Assembly (NCBI RefSeq): GCF_018780105.1
Contig: NZ_JADMKC010000005.1
Location: forward strand, 16,482 to 80,481
From: Thiobacillus sp.
GTDB taxonomy: Bacteria; Pseudomonadota; Gammaproteobacteria; Burkholderiales; Thiobacillaceae
Length of the DNA stretch: 64,000 bases
Reading direction: 5' to 3'
Shown here: piece after piece, positions 1 through 16,335 of the stretch
How positions within the stretch are numbered: position 1 is the stretch's first letter
Layout of the letters: every line of letters starts with the position of its first letter
Notes under the pieces: model-generated
The model's database searches: none
What the model saw: only the letters and a program-made list of their open reading frames with translations
Told to the model about the DNA's origin: nothing
Translations under genes and position numbers: made by a program

Positions 1-1549
<1,549 letters not shown>

Positions 1550-1555
1550 GCCCGG

Positions 1556-1580
1556 TGCCCGCCCGCCTGCCGGGCGGGCA
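1556..1580. other. GC-rich intergenic stem-loop after norB
   Basis: Perfect 10-bp stem TGCCCGCCCG/CGGGCGGGCA, 5-nt loop, no U tract. Confidence 0.5.
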
Positions 1581-1595
1581 GGGCATGAGACGATC

Positions 1596-2189
1596 TTGAA
1601 CATTGCAGTCGCGCTCCTCGCACCGCAAGGCCGCCGTCGCGATTTGCCCGGCGACCTGGCGATGTGGTTTTTCATCTTCGCCGAACTGCTGGTGTTCGGC
1701 GTCCTCTTTCTGGCATACGCATTTGCGCGTGCGCGCAACGTCGAGCTGTTCAACGCATCGCAGCTTGAGCTTGACCGGATCAGCGGCGCCATCAACACCG
1801 CGCTGCTGATCACCAGCAGCTACTTCGTGGTGCGTGCCGTGGACCGCATCCGTCATGGCGCCTCGCGCGCTTGTGTCCACTGGCTGGCCGCTGCCATGGC
1901 GTGTGGCGGCGCCTTCCTGGTGCTCAAGCTGGTCGAGTTCGGCGCCAAGTTCGACGCCGGCATCACCATGTCGACCAACACCTTTTTCATGTTCTACATC
2001 GGGCTCGGCTTCTTTCACTTCATGCACGTGGTACTCGGCATGGTCATCCTCGGCGCGGTCGCGCTCAAGGCGTGGCAAGGCGGATACAGCGCCGCCGATC
2101 ACACCGGCGTGGAGACTGGCGCGTCCTACTGGCACATGGTCGACCTGGTGTGGATCGTGCTATTTCCCCTCGTCTACGTGCTGCGCTGA
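1596..2189 (+). CDS. norE: NorE-like cytochrome c oxidase subunit III family protein
   Basis: MWFFIFAELLVFGVLF, F..FH..HV and YWHMVDLVWIVLFPLVY motifs; TTG start; nor cluster context. Confidence 0.8.
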   Translation: MNIAVALLAPQGRRRDLPGDLAMWFFIFAELLVFGVLFLAYAFARARNVELFNASQLELDRISGAINTALLITSSYFVVRAVDRIRHGASRACVHWLAAAMACGGAFLVLKLVEFGAKFDAGITMSTNTFFMFYIGLGFFHFMHVVLGMVILGAVALKAWQGGYSAADHTGVETGASYWHMVDLVWIVLFPLVYVLR

Positions 2190-2194
2190 ACGCG

Positions 2195-2458
2195 ATGAAA
2201 CAGGCGACCCTCCTGTGGCTGCTCCTGCTGGCGCTGACCACGCTGACGACGCAGGCCGCCACGTTGTCCGCAGCCGCAGGCTTGACCGGCTCGGCCGTGC
2301 CCCTGGTGCTGCTGGCGGCCCTGATCAAGGGCCGCGTCGTGATCGACCGTTTCATGGTGTTGCAGCATGTCGACGGCCCCTGGCGCTGGATCGTGCTGGG
2401 CTGGCTGCTGCTGGTGCTCGGCCTGATCGGCTACGCTTTCAACCTGAACCCGACCTGA
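2195..2458 (+). CDS. NorF-like / cytochrome oxidase subunit IV family membrane protein (87 aa)
   Basis: ATG at 2195; hydrophobic protein with IKGRVVIDRFMVL motif, following the CoxIII-like gene. Confidence 0.72.
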   Translation: MKQATLLWLLLLALTTLTTQAATLSAAAGLTGSAVPLVLLAALIKGRVVIDRFMVLQHVDGPWRWIVLGWLLLVLGLIGYAFNLNPT

Positions 2459-2471
2459 CTGGAGCCTCAGC

Positions 2472-3287
2472 ATGAACGACCTCACCGAATCCGGCCTGGC
2501 AAGCGCCGCTGCCATCCCCTGGTACCACCCGGTCGGCAAGGAATGCGAGCTGTTTGAATATGCATTCAGCAACCGCCTGCCACTGTTGATCAAGGGACCC
2601 ACCGGTTGCGGCAAGACGCGCTTCGTCGCGCACATGGCGGCGCGCCTGGGGCGGCCGCTGATTACCGTAGCCTGCCACGACGACCTCACCGCCGCCGACC
2701 TGGTCGGCCGCCATCTGATCGGCGATGGCCAGACCCTCTGGTCGGACGGCCCACTTACCCGCGCCGTGCGGCAAGGCGGCATCTGCTACCTCGACGAAGT
2801 GGTCGAGGCGCGCAAGGACACCACCGTGGTGCTGCACCCGCTGACCGACGACCGGCGCATCCTGCCGATCGAGCGCACCGGCGAGGAACTCCATGCGCCG
2901 GACGATTTCATGCTGGTGGCGTCCTACAATCCCGGCTACCAAAACCTGCTGAAAAGCCTGAAGCCCTCGACCCGCCAGCGCTTCATCGCAATCAGTCTCG
3001 GTTTCCCGCCGCGCGCGATCGAGGAAAAAATCGTGGTCGCCGAAACGGGTATTGCACCGGCACTGGCAGCCCGGCTGGTGACGCTGGTCGGACAGCTGCG
3101 TCAGCTCAAGGATCACGACTTGGAAGAAGCCGCCTCGACCCGCCTGCTGGTGTACGCAGGCAGCCTCATTGCCGCCGGCTGCGACCCGGTCGCCGCCTGC
3201 CACGCGGCACTGGTGGAGCCGTTGACCGACGACCCCGATACCGCCGAGGCACTGCTCGAAGTGGTGCGGGCGAGCTTCGGCACATGA
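2472..3287 (+). CDS. norQ: NorQ/NirQ/CbbQ MoxR AAA+ ATPase
   Basis: Walker A GPTGCGKT, Walker B YLDE, SYNPGYQ and STRLL motifs. Confidence 0.95.
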   Translation: MNDLTESGLASAAAIPWYHPVGKECELFEYAFSNRLPLLIKGPTGCGKTRFVAHMAARLGRPLITVACHDDLTAADLVGRHLIGDGQTLWSDGPLTRAVRQGGICYLDEVVEARKDTTVVLHPLTDDRRILPIERTGEELHAPDDFMLVASYNPGYQNLLKSLKPSTRQRFIAISLGFPPRAIEEKIVVAETGIAPALAARLVTLVGQLRQLKDHDLEEAASTRLLVYAGSLIAAGCDPVAACHAALVEPLTDDPDTAEALLEVVRASFGT

Positions 3288-3661
3288 GCGGCGTCCCGGC
3301 TCGGGCTTCTCCCGCAGTACAGGCTGAGGCGCTCTATCTGATCAACCTGCTGCTGGTGCCGGGGCTGGCGTTTCTGCTGTTGCTGCTGCTGTTCCGTCGC
3401 CATCGCAATAGCACCGATCCGCTGGTGCGCGGCCATGTGCGGCAAACCGTTGCGGCAAGCCTGCTGGCCGGGTTGCTGCTGGCGGGGGGGCCTGCGCTGA
3501 TGGTGCTGGCGGGCGATTTGAGTCGGCCTGGCGTCTGGATTGGCATGGTTTTGTATTTTGTGTGCTGCCACGGCACGCTGGTTTTGCTGGGAGTGTTCGG
3601 GCTCGCGCGCGCACTGGCTGGCAAGCCCTTCAGCTACCCGCTGCTCGGGCGCTACGCATGA
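3284..3661 (+). CDS. Small membrane protein, about 3 TM helices (125 aa)
   Basis: ATGA overlaps with the norQ stop and the next gene start; hydrophobic ORF MSGVPARASPAVQAEALYLINLLL...FSYPLLGRYA. Confidence 0.75.
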   Translation: MSGVPARASPAVQAEALYLINLLLVPGLAFLLLLLLFRRHRNSTDPLVRGHVRQTVAASLLAGLLLAGGPALMVLAGDLSRPGVWIGMVLYFVCCHGTLVLLGVFGLARALAGKPFSYPLLGRYA

Positions 3662-4689
3662 TCGGCACTCAGGCTACCGCCGCGATCCGCGCCGAGCTTG
3701 CCCGCCATGCCCGCAGCTGGCTGGGGCTGCCGGTGCAACGCTGGCGCCGCCTGACCCAGACAGGGTTTTTCCTGCTGTTCGTTTGTGCGCCCCTATTCGA
3801 CATTTTGCGTCTCGACCTCAACCTCGGGCATTTCATCCTGTTCGGTTTCGACTGGACGCTTGGTCTCGACGATTTCGCCGCCGGGCGCCTGTCCACCGCG
3901 CAAGCCTCGCTCAACATCGTGCTGCGCGGCTTCCTGCCGCTGGCGGCGGTCGCCGGCACGGTGCTTTATGTCGGCTGGAAATGGGGCCGCCTGTACTGCG
4001 GCTGGCTGTGTCCGCATTTCTCGGTGGTCGAGACGCTCAACCAGATGCTGCGGCGCGCGATTGGCAAGCAAAGCCTGTGGGACACAAAACAGCAGCCCGC
4101 GCGCAACCCTGATGGTAGCGAAACCCCGCGCGACGCGCTGTGGTGGTTTGCCGTGCTGCCGCTGACGATCGGCTTCGCGATGCTGTGGGCGGTGGTGCTG
4201 CTGACCTATCTACTGCCGCCGGCCGAGGTCTACGGCAACCTGCTCAATGGCACGCCAACGCGCAATCAGGCGATCTTTCTGACGGTTGCCAGCCTCGCGT
4301 TCTGCGTCGAATTCCTGTTCGCGCGCCACCTGTTCTGCCGCTACGGCTGCGCGGTCGGCCTGTTCCAGAGCCTGGCCTGGATGGGCAATGACAAGGCCAT
4401 GGTGGTTGGCTTCAGCCGAACGCGCGCGCGCGATTGCGCGAGCTGCCACTCGGCCTGCGACCAGGTCTGCCCGATGCGCCTCAACCCGCGCAACGTCAAA
4501 CGCATGATGTTCGCCTGCGTGCAGTGCGGACAGTGCGTGGATGCCTGCGACCACACCCAGGCCGCCAATCCGGACGGGGCACTGCTCAACTGGGTACACG
4601 ATCTGCGCGCCGAGTCCGAAGCCGCGTTCAACACCCGTGCCGCCCGTACCCTGCCGCCGGCGTGCGGTTCGGCACACACGGGATCCTAG
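3658..4689 (+). CDS. Membrane-bound polyferredoxin (NapH/FixG-like 4Fe-4S protein)
   Basis: CGWLCP, CRYGC, CASCHSACDQVCP and CVQCGQCVDAC motifs plus TM segments. Confidence 0.87.
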   Translation: MIGTQATAAIRAELARHARSWLGLPVQRWRRLTQTGFFLLFVCAPLFDILRLDLNLGHFILFGFDWTLGLDDFAAGRLSTAQASLNIVLRGFLPLAAVAGTVLYVGWKWGRLYCGWLCPHFSVVETLNQMLRRAIGKQSLWDTKQQPARNPDGSETPRDALWWFAVLPLTIGFAMLWAVVLLTYLLPPAEVYGNLLNGTPTRNQAIFLTVASLAFCVEFLFARHLFCRYGCAVGLFQSLAWMGNDKAMVVGFSRTRARDCASCHSACDQVCPMRLNPRNVKRMMFACVQCGQCVDACDHTQAANPDGALLNWVHDLRAESEAAFNTRAARTLPPACGSAHTGS

Positions 4690-4692
4690 GCC

Positions 4693-6534
4693 ATGGAAGA
4701 ATTTGTCGGCAGCCTGTGGGACAAGCTGATCACCCGCGCCGCCTATCGGGGTTTTCCCCGGGCACGCGTCGAACTGGCGCAGATCGAACGCATGGCGCCG
4801 GTGTACTTTCGTGCCCTTGGCGGCGACGCGGGCCTGGCGCTGCGTGCCGGCTGCGCCACCGCGCACGGCGCACGGCGCAACTGGATGGAGCGTGTGGCGG
4901 GAATCGGCGACAAGGTCGAGCTGGCGTGGCGCGACGACGCCACGTTGTATCTTCCGGCTGCGATCGAGGTGTTTCCGCAGCGTGAGCTGAACCGCGATCT
5001 ATATCTGTGGCTGATCGCACTGGCGGCGCACGATGTCGCGCCGAACACGCCGTGGATCGTGCGCAATCAGGCAGCGGCGCGTGCAACGCTCGCCGCATTG
5101 CCCGGCCTCGCGCCGCGCTATCGCAGGCTGGTCAATGCGCTGCTGGCGCTGCGCCCACCCCTGGATAGCCTCGTCGGGGCGGAGCAAGAGGCAGAAGTCG
5201 CGATCCGCGCCGCGCTGGATGCGCCGGGTTCGGTCGCAATCTTCGCGCCGGGTCGGCGGCGGCCGACGCCAGTGCCGCTATGGCTGCATCCCGAGCCGCC
5301 AGTCAATGCCGCCGCGCCGCGCCGGTCTGGCAGCGCGACGTCGCCGCAGCCGGCAGGCCCCCAATCCAGGGCCGACCGGGAAAAACGCAAGCGGCGCGCC
5401 GAGCGGGTCGACATGCCGCAGGCGAACAGCCCCTTCATGCTGTTGTTTCGTGCCGAAAGCCTGTTTTCCTGGGCAGAGTTCATCAAGGTTGACCGCCCGC
5501 TCGACGAGGACGAAAACGAGCACGCGGAAAAGGCCGCCAACGACCTCGATTTCCTCAGCATCGCCGACGGCGAAACGAGTGCCGCCAGCCGGGTGCGCTT
5601 CGATCTCGATCTGCCGTCCGAAGCCGACGACGACCGCAAGCTGGCCGACGGCATCCTGCTGCCGGAATGGGATTACCGCAGGCAGCGCCTGCAACCCGCG
5701 CACTGCCGGCTGCAAATGCTGCTCGCGCGCGACGCCGGGGACTGCGCCCTGCCGCCCCTCTTGCGCGCACCGGCGCGGCGGCTGCGCCAGCAGTTCCAGG
5801 CGTTGGCCACGCAAAACACGCGGCTGCGCGCCCAGATGGCCGGTAGCGATCTCGACATCGATGCCTGCGTCCGCTTTGCCGCCGACCGCACAGGCGGTGC
5901 GCACGCGCCCGAGCCGGGGCTGTATATCGACAGCCGCCGCCATCAGCGCGATCTGTCCTGCCTGTTGCTGGCCGATCTGTCGCTTTCAACCGACGCCTGG
6001 ATCAGCGATTCGGGGCGGGTGATCGATGTGATCCGCGACAGCCTGCTGCTGTTCAGCGAAGCGCTGGCAGCCACCGGCGACCGCTTCGCGCTGTACGGCT
6101 TTTCGTCGGTGCGGCGCGACAACGTGCGCTTTCACCTGCTCAAGGGTTTCGACGAGCGCTACGACGCGCGCATCCGTGGCCGTCTCATCGCCATCAAACC
6201 GGGCTACTACACCCGCATGGGAGCGGCGATCCGCCATGCCGCCGCGATCCTCGCAAGCCGCAAATCAGCGCGCCGCCTGCTGATGATCTTGACCGACGGC
6301 AAGCCGAATGATCTCGACAAGTACGAAGGCCGCTACGGCATTGAAGACACCCGCATGGCGATCATCGAGGCACGCCGACAGGGGTTGATCCCGTTCTGCG
6401 TGACCATCGATGCCAAGGCTGGAGATTACCTGCCGCACCTGTTCGGCGCGGCGGGTTATGTCGTGGTGCGCGATGCGGCCATGCTGCCCCAGGTACTGCC
6501 AAGCCTGTATACCAGGCTGACCGAAAACATTTGA
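4693..6534 (+). CDS. norD: NorD vWA-domain activation protein
   Basis: MEEFVGSLWDKLI start; MIDAS DLSLS; PGYYTRMGAAIRH and LTDGKPNDLDKYEGRYGIEDT. Confidence 0.93.
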   Translation: MEEFVGSLWDKLITRAAYRGFPRARVELAQIERMAPVYFRALGGDAGLALRAGCATAHGARRNWMERVAGIGDKVELAWRDDATLYLPAAIEVFPQRELNRDLYLWLIALAAHDVAPNTPWIVRNQAAARATLAALPGLAPRYRRLVNALLALRPPLDSLVGAEQEAEVAIRAALDAPGSVAIFAPGRRRPTPVPLWLHPEPPVNAAAPRRSGSATSPQPAGPQSRADREKRKRRAERVDMPQANSPFMLLFRAESLFSWAEFIKVDRPLDEDENEHAEKAANDLDFLSIADGETSAASRVRFDLDLPSEADDDRKLADGILLPEWDYRRQRLQPAHCRLQMLLARDAGDCALPPLLRAPARRLRQQFQALATQNTRLRAQMAGSDLDIDACVRFAADRTGGAHAPEPGLYIDSRRHQRDLSCLLLADLSLSTDAWISDSGRVIDVIRDSLLLFSEALAATGDRFALYGFSSVRRDNVRFHLLKGFDERYDARIRGRLIAIKPGYYTRMGAAIRHAAAILASRKSARRLLMILTDGKPNDLDKYEGRYGIEDTRMAIIEARRQGLIPFCVTIDAKAGDYLPHLFGAAGYVVVRDAAMLPQVLPSLYTRLTENI

Positions 6535-6862: not shown

Positions 6863-7468
6863 TCAGTGGCGGTGATGCGTGTTGCGGTTCATCGACTGGA
6901 TCAGTTCGGGCGTGACTTGTTTGAATTCCAGGGTCGTCCCGCCCTGGCCACGGGTAAAAGCGTCCGCTGCTGCGCGCGTGGAAAAGGCAGGCAAATCGGC
7001 GCCCCGCATCGGGCCCATTGTAGTTGAGCCCTGTACGAAAAAGGCATGCTGCGCTTCGATCCATTGCCCGGTTTCAAAGTCGGTGACATAGCTGGCGATA
7101 ATGTCTGCGGGCGCGTAGCGTGTTCTGCCGCGGCCACTTCTTTGCAGAAAGACAAACAGATCGACCGGTGTATCAAAGAAGTGCGACGCACCGTCCTGGA
7201 AAACGGTTTGCGCAGCCCAACGCGGAGTACGCGCCGGATACATGCCGCATATCGGGCAGCGTGCATCAACGGGAATCGATTTGGGTGCGCGCATCGCCAG
7301 ACCTGATGAGGCATCGTAGGGCGTTGCAGGGGCAACGATGCACAGCTCGTTCGTGACCGGACCGGCATTGAGGCTTGCCTGCTGGCCAGGGGGCAGGAGC
7401 GGATAGGCAGCGATTGCAACCACAGTTGCAGCCCCCCCCAGCAAGATCAAGTTTGCCGGCAGATGCAT
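6863..7468 (-). CDS. Second NosL-family copper-binding protein
   Basis: CPICGM, FFD, YVTDF, AFFVQGS and GPMRGADLPAF motifs; N-terminal hydrophobic anchor; ends THHRH. Confidence 0.85.
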   Translation of the reverse strand: MHLPANLILLGGAATVVAIAAYPLLPPGQQASLNAGPVTNELCIVAPATPYDASSGLAMRAPKSIPVDARCPICGMYPARTPRWAAQTVFQDGASHFFDTPVDLFVFLQRSGRGRTRYAPADIIASYVTDFETGQWIEAQHAFFVQGSTTMGPMRGADLPAFSTRAAADAFTRGQGGTTLEFKQVTPELIQSMNRNTHHRH

Positions 7469-7833
7469 CAGGCGGTTTCCCTGACTCCAAGCATGGGGTT
7501 GTCCAGCAAGGCGAGAATCAAGCTTCGCAGGTTGTCTTCCGGTGATGCATCGGGGCGGGTGATCGGATCTGCCATGATGCGGCCGCCCGCATCGTGAAAG
7601 TGGTTAGGGAAGCTTGCCAAATCCCGGTGCAGAGGGGCGGTATCGATGCCGGATTCGGCATCGCCATAGACCCAGCGCAGCGAATAGGCATCGGGCGCGG
7701 CATAGCGAACGTCCAGCGTGACGCCATTCTTCAGGTGGATGATCATTGCATCCTGCGTTTGTTCGACAGGGGAATCGAGGTCGCCCCCAAAGGCTTCATT
7801 AATCATGGTGCTGAGTTCAAGATGTTGGCTCAT
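7468..7833 (-). CDS. DUF6516/TumE-like protein (putative toxin)
   Basis: ATG at 7833 with AAGGAGG RBS; motif IDTAPLHRDLASFPNHFH resembles the DNAPHH...FPHHxH signature as recalled. Confidence 0.55.
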   Translation of the reverse strand: MSQHLELSTMINEAFGGDLDSPVEQTQDAMIIHLKNGVTLDVRYAAPDAYSLRWVYGDAESGIDTAPLHRDLASFPNHFHDAGGRIMADPITRPDASPEDNLRSLILALLDNPMLGVRETA

Positions 7834-8101
7834 TCCGATTGGCCTCCTTGAGTCTCTCAGCAAGCGTTGTACGGACTATTTCACGAGTGTCGGCAAGAAT
7901 TCTGGCTGCCAGGTAGTGCTCATAGGCTGGATGCTCAGCCACTTCGCCGGTCTGTATTTGCTGCAGCAGTGCGGTCTCATTTTCAGCGCCATGGTGTTTG
8001 AGAATGGCGTTGTGGTTCTCCCGCAATTCATAGGCCAGCCGGGACAACTGTTCGATTTCCGTTGCGGTCTCGAACGCGACGTGTTCAAAGAATTCGACCA
8101 T
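7817..8101 (-). CDS. Hypothetical protein, TumA-like antitoxin candidate (94 aa)
   Basis: ATG at 8101 just after the nosL stop; ILKHHGAENETALLQQIQTGEVAEHPAYEHYL; overlaps the next gene by 17 nt. Confidence 0.5.
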   Translation of the reverse strand: MVEFFEHVAFETATEIEQLSRLAYELRENHNAILKHHGAENETALLQQIQTGEVAEHPAYEHYLAARILADTREIVRTTLAERLKEANRNEPTS

Positions 8102-8106
8102 GATGT

Positions 8107-8628
8107 TTACATGCTCCTGTCGTGAAGGGCGCCGCCGTCGAGCACCACCATGTCGGGGGTAATGTCGGCGAAACGAAAAAGTTTCCCGCCATGCTCGGCG
8201 GCAAACTGGGTGGCATCCTTTTCCAGCGCGAAACTGGCGATCGTCGGCCCCATGGAGCCGAGCCGTTTGCTGCCATGCACGTAGTAGGCGGTCTTCGCAT
8301 CGATCCAGTGGTTCCGCGGCTGGTCCCAATCTGCCTTGCCCATGTCCTGCACGAAAATACCGAGCACGGCCCGAACCTGTTCGGGATTGAGAAACATGTG
8401 GAACATTTCCACCGTGTCGCAGAAGTAATCCGGCTCGGCCTGCCCGGCATAATGAATCTGTGCTTTGGGGCCGGGATAGTCGGCGAGCAGCATGCCGTCC
8501 AGGCTGCAGGATGTGCCCTGATCGATCTCCAGGGGAACCACTGCGGTTTCGGTTGCGGATTGCCCGCAACCCACCAGTACGGTGGCAGCGAAGGCGGCAA
8601 GAACAAATCTTTGTCGTACAGGTTTCAT
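8107..8628 (-). CDS. nosL: NosL lipoprotein copper chaperone
   Basis: Lipobox VLVGC, CSLDGM, YPGPKAQI, GSMGP; follows nosY. Confidence 0.9.
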   Translation of the reverse strand: MKPVRQRFVLAAFAATVLVGCGQSATETAVVPLEIDQGTSCSLDGMLLADYPGPKAQIHYAGQAEPDYFCDTVEMFHMFLNPEQVRAVLGIFVQDMGKADWDQPRNHWIDAKTAYYVHGSKRLGSMGPTIASFALEKDATQFAAEHGGKLFRFADITPDMVVLDGGALHDRSM

Positions 8629-9440
8629 TTGCGGAATCTCCAGCTTGCAATACCTAAGGGCGCGGCTATCCAGGCGAGCATCACCAGACCCAGCAGCCAG
8701 GGGTTGGCCAGTGTGGGTGGGAAAACAGTCGTCAGGCCGTACAGGGTGCGAACGTCGTCGAGGGCAAAGACATTCAGGATGCGGAACACGTCAGCGGGAT
8801 TGGCCAGCAGCAGATAGGGGAAAATCTCGCCGCCCCATTGACCGCCGGTCACGACCAGTGCGCCGAGCAGCAGCAGGTCGAACACCAGCACGAAGAAAAA
8901 CCATAGTGCAATCGCGAGTCCGGAAGCGCGCGTGCGATCACTGGCAAACACCGACAGCATCACCGCCAGACTCAGGAAGGCGCAGCCCAGCAACACCGAA
9001 CTGAACATGAAGCCGACGTAATGGAACAGCGCATCGAGATCGAGCTGCGGCGACAGCACGATCCCCGCCAGACCAAAGCCGGCCACGGTGGAAAATGTCA
9101 GCGCAGCAGCAAGCCCGAAATATTTGCCGAGCAGGATTTCCAGCCGGGTGATCGGCATCGACAGCAGCAGGTCGAGCGAGCCGCGTTCGCGTTCGCCTAC
9201 GATGGCATCGAAGCCCAGGATCAGCGCAATCAACGGGATCAGATAAATGACGAGACTCACCAGGCTGGCAATGGTGACGTCGATCGCGTGAAAGCCGACG
9301 GAGCCCTGCTGCGCCGCGCCGAAGTAGGCGATGACCAGTGCGAAGGCGGTGAATACCAGGGCCACGGCCAGCACCCAGCGATTGCGGATGCGGTCCCAGA
9401 ACTCCTTGCTGGCGAGGGTAGTGATTTGTTTGATTTCCAT
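8625..9440 (-). CDS. nosY: NosY ABC transporter permease
   Basis: KEFWDRIRNRW, DAIVGERERGSLDLLLSMP, NPADVFR; nos context. Confidence 0.92.
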   Translation of the reverse strand: MEIKQITTLASKEFWDRIRNRWVLAVALVFTAFALVIAYFGAAQQGSVGFHAIDVTIASLVSLVIYLIPLIALILGFDAIVGERERGSLDLLLSMPITRLEILLGKYFGLAAALTFSTVAGFGLAGIVLSPQLDLDALFHYVGFMFSSVLLGCAFLSLAVMLSVFASDRTRASGLAIALWFFFVLVFDLLLLGALVVTGGQWGGEIFPYLLLANPADVFRILNVFALDDVRTLYGLTTVFPPTLANPWLLGLVMLAWIAAPLGIASWRFRK

Positions 9441-9449
9441 GCTCGCCCT

Positions 9450-10385
9450 TTAATCCGAAAAACCGAAGAACACGTCTTCGAGCGAGGGTTCGCGCACGGT
9501 CATGTCGCGTACGCGTCCGCCCAGTGCGGCAAGCGCTTCGATCACCGCCATTTTGTTTTCGCGCCGGCACGGTACGGTCAGATGATCGGCGTGCGTCTCG
9601 ATTGCGCCGACAGGCAGATGGGCAAGCGCTGCGCGCACCGCGGCGAAATCCGCCTGCGCGGTGCGCACGGTAAACCACAGCGGCAGATCCATCTGCTCGC
9701 GCAAGGCCTGCACCGTGCCGCTGGCCTGTATCTTGCCGGCGGTCATGATGGCCAGGCGATCCACCCTTTCCTGGATTTCGGCGAGGATGTGGGAGGTGAT
9801 CACCATCGTCACGCCTTCGCTGCGAAGTTGCCGCAGGATCGCGTAGAAGCTGCGGATCGCCTCCGGGTCGAGCCCGGAAGTCGGCTCGTCGAGAAACAGG
9901 ATGCGCGGCTTGCCGAGCAGCGCCTGGGCAAAGCCGAGCCGCTGGCGCATGCCCTTGGAGTATTCGCGCACCCGCCGCCTGGCCGCCTGCGCCAGACCGA
10001 CACGTTCGAGCGCCGCGCCGCTTTCGGCCTGTGACACGCCTTTCAGGCGCGAAAAGAAGTGCAGTGTTTCAAGCCCGGTGAGGTTGTCGTAGAGCACGAC
10101 ATTTTCCGGCAGGTAACCGATCGTGCGCCGCACCGCGCGAAAATTTCCGCCACTCACCTGTGCGCCATCGATGCGGATGTCGCCCGCCGTGGCGGGGATC
10201 AGGCCGAGCATCATCTTGAACATCGTGCTCTTGCCGGCGCCGTTGTGGCCGATGAGGCCGAACAGTTCACCAGCGCGAATATCGAGGTCGACGCCATCGA
10301 CCGCATGAATCGGCCCGTAGTGCTTGTGTACGCCGCGCGCGACGATGACCGCCGTTCCCGCTTCAGTTTGTGTCTCAGTTTTCAT
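9450..10385 (-). CDS. nosF: NosF ABC transporter ATPase
   Basis: GHNGAGKST, YSKGMRQR, LFLDEP; between nosD and nosY. Confidence 0.92.
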   Translation of the reverse strand: MKTETQTEAGTAVIVARGVHKHYGPIHAVDGVDLDIRAGELFGLIGHNGAGKSTMFKMMLGLIPATAGDIRIDGAQVSGGNFRAVRRTIGYLPENVVLYDNLTGLETLHFFSRLKGVSQAESGAALERVGLAQAARRRVREYSKGMRQRLGFAQALLGKPRILFLDEPTSGLDPEAIRSFYAILRQLRSEGVTMVITSHILAEIQERVDRLAIMTAGKIQASGTVQALREQMDLPLWFTVRTAQADFAAVRAALAHLPVGAIETHADHLTVPCRRENKMAVIEALAALGGRVRDMTVREPSLEDVFFGFSD

Positions 10386-11652
10386 AATGGAAGTAACGGC
10401 TACGCCATTGGCCCCAGTCAGATTGGTACGGTTGCATCACGGGGGTGGGATCGACGACGCTGGGCGCGCGCAACAGCGGGAACTGCTGGCTGACCAGCCG
10501 CAGCGTCTGTACCGCCGGGCTGGCGAGCAGCAGCTTCATCATCGGGTGTTGCCAGGACAGACGGTCGACCAGATCGTTGGCCTCGTATTGCACATCGCCA
10601 ATGCCGTCGCCGTTGCGGTCCCAGCCCACATAGTTGCTCCAGAAGTTGCCACGGTCCTTGCCCCATATCACGTCCTGGCTGGCGACGTATTTGATCTGGG
10701 TACGGTTTGAGATGAAGTCGTTGCCGGTGACCTGGTTGTGGATCGAACCCGCCGCCAGATGCACGCCTGTGGTGTTGTCTACGATCAGGTTGTTGCGCAG
10801 GGTGTTGTACTCGGCATCGTAGATGAAGAAACCGCGTTCATTGCCCGCCACAATGTTGCCTTCGATGACCGAGTCCTGAATGGTGCGCAGCATGATGCCA
10901 TGATCCGAATTGCCCCAAGCGCGGTTATTGCGCACCACCTGATGGCGGGTCATCATCAGGGCGAGGCCGCCACGGTTGTGGTACGAGTCGTTGCCTTCCC
11001 ACACGTTGTAGTGGGAGTTCATGTAGTGGGTGCCGTAGCGGGAATGGTGGATGCGGTTGTTGCGGAATACTGCGTGGTGCGACACGTCGACGTAGATGCC
11101 GTCGCGCACGAAGCTGATGTTGTTGCCGATGATCTGCGCGCCTTCGGTGTTATAGAGCTGGATGCCGTTGCCGCGCCGGGGCGACCGATAATCGCGCTTG
11201 CCGGTGATGACATTGTTGCGGATCTCGACGTTCTTGGCCGTCTGGATATAAATGCCGAACAGGTTGTAGGTCAGGTCGCAGTTGCGCACCGCCGCGCGAT
11301 GCGCCCCCGGCTTGATGAAGATGCCGGCATTCTGGTCGATCAGTTCATCGCCCGAATCACGCACGATCAAGCCATCGATAACCACATCCTCTGCGGTGAT
11401 CCGGATCGTGTCGCCCTTGAAGCCGCCGCTCAGGGTAGGGCGGCCAATCCCTTTCAGCGTCAAGGGTTTGTCGATCACCAGTTGCTCCTGGTAATAGCCT
11501 TTTTCCACCCGGATCACGTCACCGGGCGAAGCCTGCACAATCGCCGCAGCGATGGACTGCCCTGTCTGCACGGTCAGTTCGGCAGCATCCCCGCTGCCGG
11601 CTGCCAGCAAGCAGAACCATGCAACCGCAAGCGGGGGGGGGCGGTAGCGCAT
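10375..11652 (-). CDS. nosD: NosD periplasmic maturation protein
   Basis: Parallel beta-helix repeats; RGNGIQLYN, SRYGTHYM, GNFWSNY.GWD; probable ATG at 11652 overlapping the nosR stop. Confidence 0.93.
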   Translation of the reverse strand: MRYRPPPLAVAWFCLLAAGSGDAAELTVQTGQSIAAAIVQASPGDVIRVEKGYYQEQLVIDKPLTLKGIGRPTLSGGFKGDTIRITAEDVVIDGLIVRDSGDELIDQNAGIFIKPGAHRAAVRNCDLTYNLFGIYIQTAKNVEIRNNVITGKRDYRSPRRGNGIQLYNTEGAQIIGNNISFVRDGIYVDVSHHAVFRNNRIHHSRYGTHYMNSHYNVWEGNDSYHNRGGLALMMTRHQVVRNNRAWGNSDHGIMLRTIQDSVIEGNIVAGNERGFFIYDAEYNTLRNNLIVDNTTGVHLAAGSIHNQVTGNDFISNRTQIKYVASQDVIWGKDRGNFWSNYVGWDRNGDGIGDVQYEANDLVDRLSWQHPMMKLLLASPAVQTLRLVSQQFPLLRAPSVVDPTPVMQPYQSDWGQWRSRYFHYEN

Positions 11653-14261
11653 CAATACAGCCATTGCAACGCTGGCAGGTCTTGCAGGAAGTCCAGCACG
11701 CCCATGCCTTTCATGACCAGGAACAAGGCGGCGGCGATCAGCAGGTTTTTGAACGCCACGTAGGCGGCCATGTCAGCCCAGGATGCCGGAACCAGATTGC
11801 GCCCCCACCAGGGGCCGTCTTTGACGTAGGGTTTGCAGCGCATGCGTACCACCATTTCGTACACGCTCCAGGCCAGCCACCAGCCCAGAATGATGCCGGG
11901 ACCAATACTGCCGGCCGCACCGAGCACCCACACCCAGGTCACCAGTATGGTGAGGGCGAACGTGGCTGCCTGCAGCAGGACCGGCTGCTGGAATACCTTG
12001 CGGCTCCAGGGGAACGCGTGGTCGAAGAACTCCTGCCCGATGAAGGCGGCCAGGCTTGGCCGCGCCGCAGCAGCAGGCGCCGCGACGACCGGGATGATGG
12101 GGATGAAGTAGCCGTCCGAACCGATCGCTGTCAGCGGCTCTCCGGCCTTGGTGCGGCGCTTGCGCTCCTGCGCCAGCGGTGGGCAGGCGTGGTCGTCGTA
12201 ATACAGCACCTGGCAGTCCAGACACAGCAGACATTCACGCTGGTCAATACGGCCCGAATCGTCGATGGCCTGGGATCCGCAGCCCACCTGGCACGCCGCA
12301 CATGGGCCACACTCTTGCTTGCGCTTGAGCCCCCACCAGCGGAACGTGGAGGGCACCGCCAGCGCTGCGCCGAGCGGGCACAGATACTTGCAGAACGGGC
12401 GCTCGAAAAAAGCCGAAGCGACAATCAAGACCGTCCAGAAAGTGACGAAAGGCCAGGAGCGGTTCCACACCCCGACCAGGAAAGTGGTTTTGAAGGGCTC
12501 GATTTCGGCGAGCTTTTCCGCCAGCCCGATGGAATAGAACGACACCCCGAGCAAAATCGCAAAAACGCCGTACTTGATCCATTTCAGGCGATCATGCCAG
12601 TTTTGCGGCAGCAGATGGCGCTGATAGCGCTTGAGGCCCAGTTTGCCGGCCACATGGTAGACCAGCTCGGCGAGCGAACCGTAGGGGCACATCCAGCCGC
12701 AAAACATCCCGCGTCCCCAGAAAAATACCGAGACGACAATGAAAATCCAGAACAGGAAGACGAACGGATCGGACAGGAACAATTCCCAGCGCCACTCGAA
12801 CAGGATGGCGTGGAACCAGGTCAGCACCTGCGTGATGGACGGCACGGCCAGCAGGTAAAACCCGACGAATCCGATCGACGTAGCCCATAGCAGGTATTTC
12901 GGGATGTCCTTCCAGCGCTTGTCTTTCATGGTTGAGCGACGAACCAGCTTGTCGCGCAATGCATACACCGTTCCCGCTGCGGTGAGCCAGAGCAGAAACA
13001 GGATGACCTCGACCTTGCGGGTTTTCCATACGGTCACCCAGGTCGCTTCCGGCTCGATGATTTCCGGACGGCCGCCTTCCAGATAGCGGCTGGGCAGCCA
13101 GTATTCCTGGTCGAAGTTGACGAAAGTCTTGGCGCGGGTTTGCCGATCCATCTTGTTGGCCAGAAACACCAGACTCCAGGGATAGGCCGCGCTGAATGTG
13201 GGCGAGCGGATGATGAAGATGGCCGACTCCCGGTAAGCGGGCGCACCGGCTGCCTTGATGTCGTAGAGATTGAGGTAATCCAGATCGCGGAAGGTGAAGG
13301 TATCGATGCCCTGGGCCACCTGCACCCGGTCATAAATCCCGCCGCGCACAAAGCCCGAGCCCTTGAACGATTCCACCCCGCTGGCGACGATAAAGATGGC
13401 ATGTTCGTCGGGCTTGAGCCGGGACATCAGGCTTTCGTAGACCGCGTCGCCGAGCACGCTACGCCCGACTCCCGGTGCGTTGAGGTAGCCAAAATACATA
13501 TCGATGTAGGGCTGGTCGGCACGGGGCATTCCGACCGCCTCGGTACTGACCTGAATGCGCTGGACGCTGCCTTCCTTGACCAGCTGACCCCAATCCAGTT
13601 TACCTTCGACCGGCCTGAACTTCGCCTGCGGCAGCACGGTGGGTTCGATGATGCCCACCTGCTTTGCAATGGCCAGGCCACTGCGAAGAATGACCTGGTT
13701 TTGGGCAATCACGGTCACCGTGGCTCCGGTGATGGCGTCCAGGCCGATCACGCCCTGATTCGGACGCCCTGCGCCCACTTCGATCTTTGAGCCGACAAAC
13801 TTGCCGAGGTATTGCTTGATGAACTTGGTGAGTTCCTCTTCCGGAATGCCCAGCAGCAGGATCGGCTCGGAGTGTTTGAGCACCCGAACGCCGGTGACGA
13901 TGCCCTGGGTATTCATGCCGATCAGGGTCACGACAGGTTTGCCTGAATAGGCGGGAATGTCGACGATGTCGGTGGAGAGAAAGACGTAACCAATCAGCTT
14001 GCGGTCGTTTTTCTCGCCAGGGTCGCTTTTCCTGCTCTGGTAGGCCTCGACATAGGCTGGCTTGCCCATGCGGTGGGAAAAACTGTCGGCACCGGGCAGC
14101 ACCTCCTTGCACGGGACGTACGCGCAGAGATCTGGATCGGTTGACAGCTGGACGGGCAGGGGCGCCTCATAACTTCCGCTTTCGCCAACGGCCAGACCCC
14201 ATGCGCAGATCAGGCAAAGCCCTGCCAGGAAACGGGTAAAAAAACCGGGGAGATAAGTCAT
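11652..14261 (-). CDS. nosR: NosR membrane FMN/Fe-S protein with C-terminal membrane extension
   Basis: FMN attachment motif DAITGAT; CGWMCP, CKYLCP, CGPCAACQVGC, CLLCLDC; ATG at 14261 (ORF open to 14303). Confidence 0.93.
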   Translation of the reverse strand: MTYLPGFFTRFLAGLCLICAWGLAVGESGSYEAPLPVQLSTDPDLCAYVPCKEVLPGADSFSHRMGKPAYVEAYQSRKSDPGEKNDRKLIGYVFLSTDIVDIPAYSGKPVVTLIGMNTQGIVTGVRVLKHSEPILLLGIPEEELTKFIKQYLGKFVGSKIEVGAGRPNQGVIGLDAITGATVTVIAQNQVILRSGLAIAKQVGIIEPTVLPQAKFRPVEGKLDWGQLVKEGSVQRIQVSTEAVGMPRADQPYIDMYFGYLNAPGVGRSVLGDAVYESLMSRLKPDEHAIFIVASGVESFKGSGFVRGGIYDRVQVAQGIDTFTFRDLDYLNLYDIKAAGAPAYRESAIFIIRSPTFSAAYPWSLVFLANKMDRQTRAKTFVNFDQEYWLPSRYLEGGRPEIIEPEATWVTVWKTRKVEVILFLLWLTAAGTVYALRDKLVRRSTMKDKRWKDIPKYLLWATSIGFVGFYLLAVPSITQVLTWFHAILFEWRWELFLSDPFVFLFWIFIVVSVFFWGRGMFCGWMCPYGSLAELVYHVAGKLGLKRYQRHLLPQNWHDRLKWIKYGVFAILLGVSFYSIGLAEKLAEIEPFKTTFLVGVWNRSWPFVTFWTVLIVASAFFERPFCKYLCPLGAALAVPSTFRWWGLKRKQECGPCAACQVGCGSQAIDDSGRIDQRECLLCLDCQVLYYDDHACPPLAQERKRRTKAGEPLTAIGSDGYFIPIIPVVAAPAAAARPSLAAFIGQEFFDHAFPWSRKVFQQPVLLQAATFALTILVTWVWVLGAAGSIGPGIILGWWLAWSVYEMVVRMRCKPYVKDGPWWGRNLVPASWADMAAYVAFKNLLIAAALFLVMKGMGVLDFLQDLPALQWLY

Positions 14262-14400
14262 GAAAGAATCAGAAGGCCTCGCTGCATCGCTTTGAACAAG
14301 CACAAAAAAGGCAGCGCCCCTGCGGACGCTGATTTGCTGCCGGATGATCGTAAAGGGTTCGTGCCGCGACTCGTCCCTCTACCGGGAACGGAGTCGCCGT

Positions 14401-16335
14401 TCAGGCCTCGACAATCATGCGGCTGCGCATTTCAAGATGCAGGGCGTGACAGAAGTGGGTGCAGTAACACCAGTAGACACCGGGCTTGTCGGCGATGAAG
14501 GTGACTGACTTGGTTTCCTGCGGGTTGACGATAAAGTTGATGTCGTACTTCGGCATTGCGAAACCGTGGGTCAGATCCTCCACCTTGTCGTGGTTGGTCA
14601 GAATGAGGGTCACTTCATCGCCCTTTTTGAGCTTGAATTCCCGCAGGCTGAAGGCCGGCGCCTGGCTGGTGAGCTTGACCGTCACCTTTTTGCCATTGCG
14701 GAAGACGCCTGATTCCGCTGGATCCTTCACTGCGTTCGGGAACTCGTCCATATCGTAGATCTGGCGCGTCTTGATGATGTCGCGGCGGACGATGATTGAG
14801 TCGTGCGGCTCAGAGAGCACCGAGTGGTCGTGCACCAGCTTCATTTTGTCGCCACTGATATCGATCAACTGTGCCGTCTCGCAGTGGAGAGGGCCTACAG
14901 GCAGGAAACGGTCCTTGGAGAACTTGTTGTCCGAGTTGAAGAAGCGGCCATCCGCTTCCCTTGTTTCGCCCATGGAGGTGAAGCCGTGGCCCGGCTGGTA
15001 ATGCACGTCGATACGGTCGACCACGGCCTTGGCAGTCTTGTCACCCTTGAATGCCTTGATCGCGGCTTCCACGTTCCACTTCACGATCTGGCTGTCGAGG
15101 AATAGCGTGGTGTAGGCATTGCCCTTGTTGTCGAATCCGGTGTGCAGCGGGCCGAGACCGATTTCGGGTTCTGCGACCACTGCGTCGCGTGCGTTAGGCA
15201 GTTCGCCGTCGAACCATTTCAGCACCAGTGCATGTTCGATCACTGAAGCAGTGGGAGAAAGCTTGCCCGAGCAGGCGTAATACTTGCCGTCCGGGCTGAT
15301 GTTCACGCCGTGCGGGTTCTTCGGGATCGGCACGTAGCAGGTCAGCGCGGTTTTCGGATCCTTGTTGGAAGCCCGTGTGCCGTCCACTACCGGAACCTTT
15401 GAGCTGCCGATGGTGGTGAACTTGCCGGCCTTGACGGCTTCTTCGACACGGGCCACGTTGAAGAACAGGCAGGCATCCATTTCGGCCGACATGGTTTCTT
15501 CATAATGGACGCCCATTTCGGTGTTGTACTGGTTGGTACAAGTCAGCTTGCCGTCGTAAGAGGTCGCCACCAGATCGCAGTTGCCATCAATCAGCACCTG
15601 CCAGCGCACATCCATGGTGTTGGAATCGATACAGGTGAACAGCGATTTGTACTTGCTGCCATCATCCATGTTGCGCCCGTCGTTGGGCAATGGAATCGAG
15701 AATTCTGCGCCACAGAACACACGGGTAGTGTGATTGATGCTGGCATCGACCGGGTCACGCTTGTCGGTGAAGGTGCCGTGAAAGCCCTGGATGTTGGGGA
15801 TTTCCGTAATCTTGTCGCATTCCATGGTGTCCATCCGGATGCGGGCCAGTCGGCCATGGATCTTGTCGTTCACGAACATGTACTTGCCGTCGTAGGTGCC
15901 GTCGGTGTAGGACTGGTGTACGTGGTGTGTGTCGCCGGTGGAGTATTTCAGAGAGCCATCGGGCCTGGTGCCGATGATGGCCTTGGATTCGTTGGTGATG
16001 CCCCAGCCCACCAGGTTGTCCGTGTTGAAGACCGGAATGCTCTTTAGTTGGCGACCGGATGGCAGGCCGTAGATGCGCACATCGCCGGAATGGCCGCCGC
16101 TCGAGAACGAGTAGTATTCATCGAGTTGGCCAGGTGGCACCTCATATGGGCTGTGCGTGGCTACTTCGCCTTTGGCGCTTGGCGCTTTCGCGCCTGGAGC
16201 CGATTCCTTGTTGCAGGCAGACAGACCAACAGACAGGCCGGCACCCGAGAGGCCGACAAGTGCGGCGGAGTTCAGAAATTTACGGCGTCCCAGATCGGGC
16301 TGGGTGTCGCGGTTTGTGGTGTCGTCCTGTGTCAT
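14401..16335 (-). CDS. nosZ: Nitrous oxide reductase, clade I (Tat-exported)
   Basis: Twin-Arg leader GRRKFL; CuZ His motifs (DTHH, KNPHG, GPLHT, HYQPGH, EPHD); CuA CTHFCHALHLEM. Confidence 0.98.
   Translation of the reverse strand: MTQDDTTNRDTQPDLGRRKFLNSAALVGLSGAGLSVGLSACNKESAPGAKAPSAKGEVATHSPYEVPPGQLDEYYSFSSGGHSGDVRIYGLPSGRQLKSIPVFNTDNLVGWGITNESKAIIGTRPDGSLKYSTGDTHHVHQSYTDGTYDGKYMFVNDKIHGRLARIRMDTMECDKITEIPNIQGFHGTFTDKRDPVDASINHTTRVFCGAEFSIPLPNDGRNMDDGSKYKSLFTCIDSNTMDVRWQVLIDGNCDLVATSYDGKLTCTNQYNTEMGVHYEETMSAEMDACLFFNVARVEEAVKAGKFTTIGSSKVPVVDGTRASNKDPKTALTCYVPIPKNPHGVNISPDGKYYACSGKLSPTASVIEHALVLKWFDGELPNARDAVVAEPEIGLGPLHTGFDNKGNAYTTLFLDSQIVKWNVEAAIKAFKGDKTAKAVVDRIDVHYQPGHGFTSMGETREADGRFFNSDNKFSKDRFLPVGPLHCETAQLIDISGDKMKLVHDHSVLSEPHDSIIVRRDIIKTRQIYDMDEFPNAVKDPAESGVFRNGKKVTVKLTSQAPAFSLREFKLKKGDEVTLILTNHDKVEDLTHGFAMPKYDINFIVNPQETKSVTFIADKPGVYWCYCTHFCHALHLEMRSRMIVEA

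Follow-up and report, generated by a model that had tools for sequence, protein, structure and literature searches.

A TumA/TumE-like gene pair at the tail of a Thiobacillus nos operon: nosP and nosQ as probable NosZ maturation helpers

Two small genes, orf94 and orf121, lie between two nosL genes in the nitrous oxide (N2O) reductase (nos) operon of Thiobacillus sp., in a stretch of 64,000 nucleotides from contig NZ_JADMKC010000005.1 (positions 16,482–80,481, forward strand; hereafter referred to as the window, in whose coordinates all features are given). By sequence comparison they are orthologues of nosP and nosQ, and I conclude, with good confidence, that Thiobacillus NosP and NosQ derive from a TumA/TumE-type toxin–antitoxin pair and act as helpers in the maturation of the N2O reductase NosZ. 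The pair is a regular component of clade-I nos clusters and had been named before; what is added here is its toxin–antitoxin ancestry. An earlier note on this DNA had proposed either a toxin–antitoxin module expressed under N2O-respiring conditions, or a domesticated His-rich pair acting in copper or NosZ maturation. The second alternative matches the fixed position of the pair in nos clusters, its co-divergence with nos genes, the natural fusions of its two halves and the published NosP/NosQ experiments. The gene anatomy, the two-sided homology, the linkage to and co-divergence with nos, the purifying selection and the natural fusions were established in this study; for the formation of a complex, its zinc, its binding to NosZ and the phenotype at low pH, the source is a preprint (Wang et al., bioRxiv 10.64898/2025.12.16.694761, 19 Dec 2025; hereafter Wang et al., 2025).

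The genes nosP (88 amino acids) and nosQ (135 amino acids) were named in Trinickia sp. Z7. In Trinickia and Paraburkholderia they follow nosL in the clade-I nos cluster; a nosPQ fusion is described in Dyella, neither protein has a signal peptide, and the distribution is 'mainly in Beta- and Gammaproteobacteria' (Wang et al., 2025). Table S5 of that study lists the homologues WP_018077131.1, WP_018077132.1 and WP_296647280.1 (BLAST E-values of 1e-7, 4e-23 and 5e-17), along with WP_296647282.1, a 90-amino-acid protein of Thiobacillus sp. 63-78 (E 3e-21). Exact-sequence look-up shows the first two to be the orf94 and orf121 homologues of T. denitrificans DSM 12475 (locus L029), and the third to be the orf121 homologue of Thiobacillus sp. 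63-78 (L058). Because these accessions are exactly the Thiobacillus homologues recovered here, orf94 is assigned to nosP and orf121 to nosQ on sequence grounds; the pair had been described before, and the table of homologues in that study already includes Thiobacillus. Identity of the window proteins to those of T. denitrificans is 64% (orf94) and 79% (orf121), and to those of strain 63-78 it is 65% and 67%. As in Trinickia, they are two small proteins without signal peptide, encoded after nosL in a clade-I cluster and fused in other taxa; direct reading of their N-termini, MVEFFEHVAFETATE and MSQHLELSTMINEAF, reveals no hydrophobic leader, which indicates cytoplasmic proteins. The sizes are 94 and 121 amino acids in the window, against 88 and 135 in Trinickia. 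The surroundings differ as well, since in Trinickia nosL and nosR enclose the pair together with a c-type cytochrome gene, whereas the window pair lies between nosL and a coupled nosL paralogue. The name NosP also denotes the nitric-oxide-sensing protein of Pseudomonas, Vibrio and Legionella.

All four genes of this tail are on the minus strand, and their tight coupling, claimed in the earlier note, can be read directly in the sequence. The stop codon of nosL1 (8107–8628), TAA at 8109–8107, is separated by 5 nucleotides from the ATG (8101–8099) of orf94 (7817–8101; 94 amino acids by translation), which overlaps orf121 (7468–7833; 121 amino acids by translation) by 17 nucleotides (7817–7833), and in the sequence TGATG at 7470–7466 the orf121 stop and the start of nosL2 (6863–7468) share one base. 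Direct reading also identifies two Shine-Dalgarno-like sites on the minus strand, AGGAG (8114–8118) in the 3′ end of nosL1, 12 nucleotides ahead of the nosP ATG, and AAGGAGG (7843–7849) in the 3′ end of nosP, 9 nucleotides ahead of the nosQ ATG. The further claims of the note, that there is no room for a promoter or terminator and that both proteins carry characteristic motifs, agree with what was found: consensus scans detected no sigma-70-like promoter on the minus strand between 6300 and 9000, and no terminator-like site between nosL1 and nosL2, and the quoted motifs are present as IDTAPLHRDLASFPNHFH in orf121 and GEVAEHPAYEHY in orf94. A scan of one genome per species gave 116 confirmed loci, and counts of the 80-of-80 type cover the best 80 of these 116. 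In 75 of 77 loci, 2–22 nucleotides separate nosL from orf94; orf94 and orf121 overlap as ATGA in 61 of 79 loci, and orf121 and nosL2 share 1 nucleotide in 39 of 52. Nearly all relatives possess a NosP of 87–90 amino acids with the ATGA overlap; the 94 amino acids and 17-nucleotide overlap of the window reflect a small stop-codon shift, common only to very close relatives.

The position of the pair is strongly conserved. A word-index protein search recovered 197 homologues at E ≤ 0.001, and a profile built from 18 relatives, searched against 1.84 billion proteins, yielded 141 representative clusters. In all of the best 80 loci, which belong to Thiobacillus, Aromatoleum, Azoarcus, Thauera, Zoogloea, other Rhodocyclaceae and some metagenome-assembled genomes labelled otherwise, nosL, orf94 and orf121 follow one another on one strand, usually with nosZRDFY upstream. 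Within the taxonomic family of the host, orf121 is found in 18 of 121 genomes, and these are exactly the 18 possessing a clade-I nosZ at ≥71% identity (0 of the other 103); it is absent from the 11 family genomes with a clade-II-like nosZ, and from all those without nosZ. The order nosY-nosL1-orf94-orf121 was retrieved by tblastn in all 18 carriers, followed by nosL2 in 16. The survey of nos clusters suggested earlier thus places the pair behind nosL in 80/80 loci and in every family genome with clade-I nosZ. A sample of 401 genomes from the order gave 17 strong matches, all among the 27 genomes with a close clade-I nosZ, and no orf121 match in genomes without nosZ; a single weak match (32 bits), possibly to an ordinary TumE, comes from a genome in which nosZ is matched only by a clade-II-like gene. 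In a class-wide sample, two further families show nosY-nosL-orf94-orf121. The idea of a mobile toxin–antitoxin insertion private to this strain was rejected on the basis of this conservation and synteny.

Other arrangements also occur. In one further TumE-like pair linked to nos, nosRDFYL is followed, according to precomputed hits, by an 88-amino-acid PF27273 gene and then a 117-amino-acid PF20126 gene. In another layout, that of loci L115/L116 (3720–5447), nosRDFY is followed by the pair and then by apbE, in the order nosY-nosP-nosQ-apbE with no nosL in between; L074 and L082 have two nosL1 copies ahead of nosP; and in L104 and L108 a c-type cytochrome gene adjoins the pair, as in Trinickia.

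By sequence, orf121 is a superfamily-level homologue of TumE, and not a member by the rule of Pfam itself: it matches the Pfam TumE model (PF20126, formerly DUF6516) with an E-value of 8e-4 and 19.8 bits, unlike TumE proper falling below the cut-off of 23.4 bits. All 18 orf121 homologues of the family match the same model at E ≤ 0.01 (best 2.2e-6), and some nos-linked members still pass the cut-off (P0171, 36.7 bits). The orf121 profile aligns over 104 columns (hhalign 98.9%, E 3e-17) to P0190, a TumE from among the clusters of the profile search that passes the cut-off with 52.4 bits on PF20126. In the AlphaFold2 model of orf121 (predicted local distance difference test, pLDDT, 88.7), a helix (residues 3–18) precedes six strands of at least three residues, with additional short strand stretches, and a second helix (98–111). 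As in TumE, two helices would pack against an antiparallel sheet; orf121 also has the family motif, and this helix/β-sheet/helix architecture matches the fold described for that family (Durairaj et al., Nature 2023, PMC10584680). Sequence and structure searches of the PDB with orf121, orf94 and a fusion model (see below) gave nothing significant; the TumE family had no PDB match for its authors either (PMC10584680). Residues D28, D64, H69, H78, H80 and D89 are invariant in two-gene forms, as is the TumE-wide motif D-T-A-P-x-H ... P-x-H-x-H; the three histidines are identical in 68 two-gene NosQ sequences, and among 48 more diverse members H78 never varies and H80 almost never.

The second half of the homology concerns orf94. 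In metagenome contigs, P0190 lies beside HepT/MNT-type toxin–antitoxin genes, and is preceded, with a 4-nucleotide overlap, by a 93-amino-acid gene carrying PF27273 'MJ0235', a label taken from precomputed hits. The orf94 profile aligns to this upstream partner (hhalign 97.8%, E 8e-13), with the common motif GEHPAYE-YL, and in orf94 the residues E56, H57, P58, Y60 and E61 are invariant. Judged on this alignment, orf94 is a member of the TumA-like partner family (PF27273) that is encoded upstream of TumE, and the gene order, with the partner upstream of and overlapping orf121, is also that of TumE-TumA (PMC10584680). The likenesses that the earlier note had named, that of orf94 to TumE partners and that of orf121 to DUF6516/TumE, are therefore both upheld at the superfamily level. 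Since orf121 resembles TumE and orf94 resembles the upstream partner of TumE, both halves appear to share a toxin–antitoxin ancestry. Weak matches of orf94 to MukF_C (E about 1e-4, below cut-off) are best read as noise from helical composition. No NCBIfam model exists for orf94 or orf121, and PADLOC found no defence-system match. In one Joint Genome Institute record, an orf94 homologue bears the name 'GTP cyclohydrolase III', apparently in error.

This relationship appears unreported in the literature searched. As far as the preprint's main text and supplements are searchable, they make no mention of toxin–antitoxin systems, and 'DUF6516 family protein' occurs only as an NCBI name in Table S5 (Wang et al., 2025); conversely, nos, NosL and copper are not mentioned in the TumE paper (PMC10584680).

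The two halves also occur as one protein. About 40 of the 141 representatives from the profile search are 197–231 amino acids long, with the orf121 profile matching the C-terminal half, and individual reading of long representatives identified an orf94-like N-terminal half, revealing natural fusions. Four of these were looked up, and three adjoin NosL genes; the fourth, on a short contig, shows none. An AlphaFold2 model of one 206-amino-acid natural fusion (pLDDT 91.7; predicted template modelling score 0.87) has three N-terminal helices followed by a TumE-like domain and is consistent with one compact unit; from this model, orf94 is predicted to form three helices. Protein distances of orf94 and orf121 are correlated in a Mantel test (r = 0.83). 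Seven fused NosPQ proteins (P0134, P0135, P0149, P0154, P0158, P0162 and P0169) keep H78, and H80 too except in P0135; in the same seven, H69 and the LATFP loop are replaced. The loss of H69 in several fusions thus shows that the fused form does not need all of the conserved histidines.

I then considered selection on the pair. The median pairwise ratio of nonsynonymous to synonymous substitution rates (dN/dS; Nei-Gojobori, 81 loci) is 0.28 for orf94 and 0.31 for orf121, compared to 0.28 for nosL1, 0.31 for nosL2, 0.14 for nosY, 0.22 for nosF and 0.25 for nosD. In Mantel tests against the combined NosD, NosF and NosY protein distances, r is 0.74 for orf94 and 0.75 for orf121 (p = 0.001). Many spurious reading frames overlap this GC-rich region, and the two genes could in principle be chance or decaying frames between two nosL genes; the probability of this is negligible, however, with a dN/dS of about 0.3, 197 homologues in one search and 141 representative clusters in the other, conserved start positions and overlaps, and confident models (pLDDT 88.7 and 91.7), and the candidate was rejected on the conservation and synteny data.

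The pair behaves as an operon component, and not as a mobile addiction module, because of its fixed position, its occurrence with clade-I nosZ only, its co-divergence with nosDFY and its natural fusions. This bears directly on the first alternative of the earlier note, in which NosQ/TumE would act as a toxin that inhibits translation, with NosP/TumA as the antitoxin, the two together forming a working type II module that stabilises the nos cluster or arrests growth during N2O respiration. Such a module would account for the homology of both proteins to a TumE and its upstream partner from an island of other toxin–antitoxin genes, for the order of partner first and TumE second with an ATGA overlap, as in TumA-TumE, and for the retained His-rich family motif; moreover, six gammaproteobacterial TumE proteins are toxic in E. 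coli (PMC10584680). However, where TumE-TumA pairs are scattered among mobile toxin–antitoxin genes, this pair is fixed in a respiratory operon: it is neither patchy nor mobile, with 80/80 fixed loci, was never found without clade-I nosZ in the genomes sampled, and co-diverges with nosDFY. There is also no space for an intergenic promoter, the two halves are fused in many natural proteins, and the window genome contains no second TumE-like gene. In Trinickia, deletion of the pair has a specific NosZ-maturation phenotype and NosPQ binds NosZ, so that the experimentally supported role, unlike that of TumE, is a chaperone-like binding of NosZ rather than inhibition of translation (Wang et al., 2025). 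I consider a working toxin–antitoxin module very unlikely.

The evidence favouring a maturation helper is experimental in Trinickia. There, deletion of nosPQ abolishes N2O reduction at pH 4.8 while it is kept at pH 6.8, and NosZ that has matured at neutral pH remains functional when the pH is low (Wang et al., 2025). A 2.4 Å electron cryo-microscopy structure of NosZ2P2Q2 (PDB 9X7X) has zinc bridging NosP and NosQ; in it, NosP plugs the opening through which ions reach the CuZ site, and the surface used by NosD is covered by the complex; the authors propose that NosZ and NosPQ assemble in the cytoplasm and are then exported together (Wang et al., 2025). By homology, the following sequence of events may be proposed for Thiobacillus. 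NosP and NosQ would be synthesised in the cytoplasm, from a transcript of the nos operon on which their translation is coupled to that of nosL and nosL2, and would form a zinc-bridged heterodimer as the Trinickia proteins do. This dimer would dock on apo-NosZ at the surface later used by NosD, plugging the channel to the CuZ histidines, and probably travel with NosZ via the twin-arginine translocation (Tat) pathway; the window NosZ does carry a twin-arginine signal (RRKFL). Copper-site assembly would thereby be shielded from protonation at low periplasmic pH. In evolutionary terms, a single capture of a TumA/TumE-type pair by a clade-I nos cluster would have been followed by its retention as an accessory in maturation. 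The role in copper that had been guessed at in the earlier note is borne out in part: the CuZ site of NosZ is what the pair is reported to shield, but it is zinc that is reported to bridge the two proteins, and not copper delivery by them (Wang et al., 2025).

Several points weigh against this account. The function has been described in one preprint that is not peer-reviewed, and in Trinickia, whose proteins share only ∼36–54% (NosP) and 42–45% (NosQ) identity with those of Thiobacillus (Wang et al., 2025). The abundance of nosPQ showed no relation to soil pH (Wang et al., 2025), and acid protection may therefore not be its whole role; in addition, moving nosPQ into three other denitrifiers brought little or no gain (Wang et al., 2025). 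Finally, the probable co-transcription of the pair with nos in this genome is judged from gene spacing only.

The conserved histidines can be read in more than one way. Conserved candidate zinc ligands are H69, H78, H80 and D64 in NosQ, and E56, H57 and E61 in NosP, and from this conservation H78, H80 and often H69, together with the EHP..E motif of NosP, are the probable metal and interface residues. The invariant histidines of TumE had been predicted to form a hydrolase site; the His-rich motifs, which are common to free TumA/TumE pairs, may instead be zinc and interface residues. A dual role has to be weighed here, in which NosPQ chaperones NosZ while free NosQ keeps a TumE-type toxicity, so that imbalance or failed NosZ loading feeds back on translation. 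The invariance of the TumE-wide motif in two-gene forms would fit this, as would the nos-linked members above the Pfam cut-off, such as P0171. However, there is no experimental hint of toxicity, and no report of growth arrest by NosQ and its neutralisation by the partner was found in the literature searched; a role as ligands of the reported NosP-NosQ zinc accounts for the conserved histidines equally well, and the fused halves and the loss of H69 in several fusions fit a purely structural role. I regard this dual role as improbable. A related and somewhat less doubtful speculation is that the helper pair re-uses the ancestral toxin–antitoxin interface, the TumE histidines and the TumA EHPxYE motif forming a shared zinc site in ordinary TumA-TumE too, and that free NosQ might still inhibit translation, coupling NosZ maturation to growth.

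N2O reductase is the only known biological sink for N2O, a strong greenhouse gas. That the enzyme fails to mature at low pH has long served to explain why acid soils emit N2O. NosPQ has already been proposed as an adaptation that overcomes this failure, and the window adds only another carrier. Because the evidence that both halves descend from a TumA/TumE pair is firm, NosPQ represents a clear case of a toxin–antitoxin pair recruited as a metalloenzyme maturation factor, and the NosZPQ structure probably offers a template for the TumA-TumE interface, of which the PDB searches made here yielded no solved example. Among the known nos accessories, NosX flavinylates NosR, and NosL delivers copper. 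Like nosX/apbE, tatE and nosL, the pair sits at the tail of the nosDFYL cluster, with a probable role in NosZ maturation and not in catalysis, and it can co-occur with apbE (L115). Neither sequence nor fold relates NosPQ to these accessories, and NosPQ differs from them in being cytoplasmic and in binding to NosZ itself.

The second NosL gene of the window, nosL2, encodes a NosL-domain protein of 201 amino acids (Pfam NosL E 1.2e-22). This protein starts with a hydrophobic anchor, ends in an HxH tail, and carries the conserved motifs C..VAPA and ARCPxCGMYPAR; the TGATG junction of the gene indicates translational coupling to nosQ. The gene was recovered near full length in 52 of 81 loci, and follows the pair in most, being absent in Aromatoleum. 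In Thiobacillus and many Rhodocyclaceae, translation of the pair would be coupled to that of a second NosL paralogue, one bearing Cys and His residues, and the preprint, as far as searched, makes no mention of such a gene (Wang et al., 2025).

The remainder of the operon precedes the pair on the minus strand, in the order nosZ-nosR-nosD-nosF-nosY-nosL1-orf94-orf121-nosL2 (translation and Pfam). The clade-I nosZ spans 14401–16335, nosR 11652–14303, nosD 10375–11664, nosF 9450–10385 and nosY 8625–9440, all identified with Pfam. The nosL1 product (173 amino acids; Pfam NosL E 1.2e-50) is a lipoprotein-type NosL with an LVGC lipobox. A terminator-like hairpin and T-run, CCGCCGAGCATGGCGG GAAACTTTTT, lies at 8186–8201 (minus strand) within the nosL1 coding sequence, and is a consensus match only. 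At 173–6534 on the plus strand, the end of the nos operon is met by convergent genes, namely norB, norD (VWA domain) and those for a norQ-type AAA ATPase and a ferredoxin-type membrane protein, so that the nor and nos genes of the window form a compact island for NO and N2O reduction.

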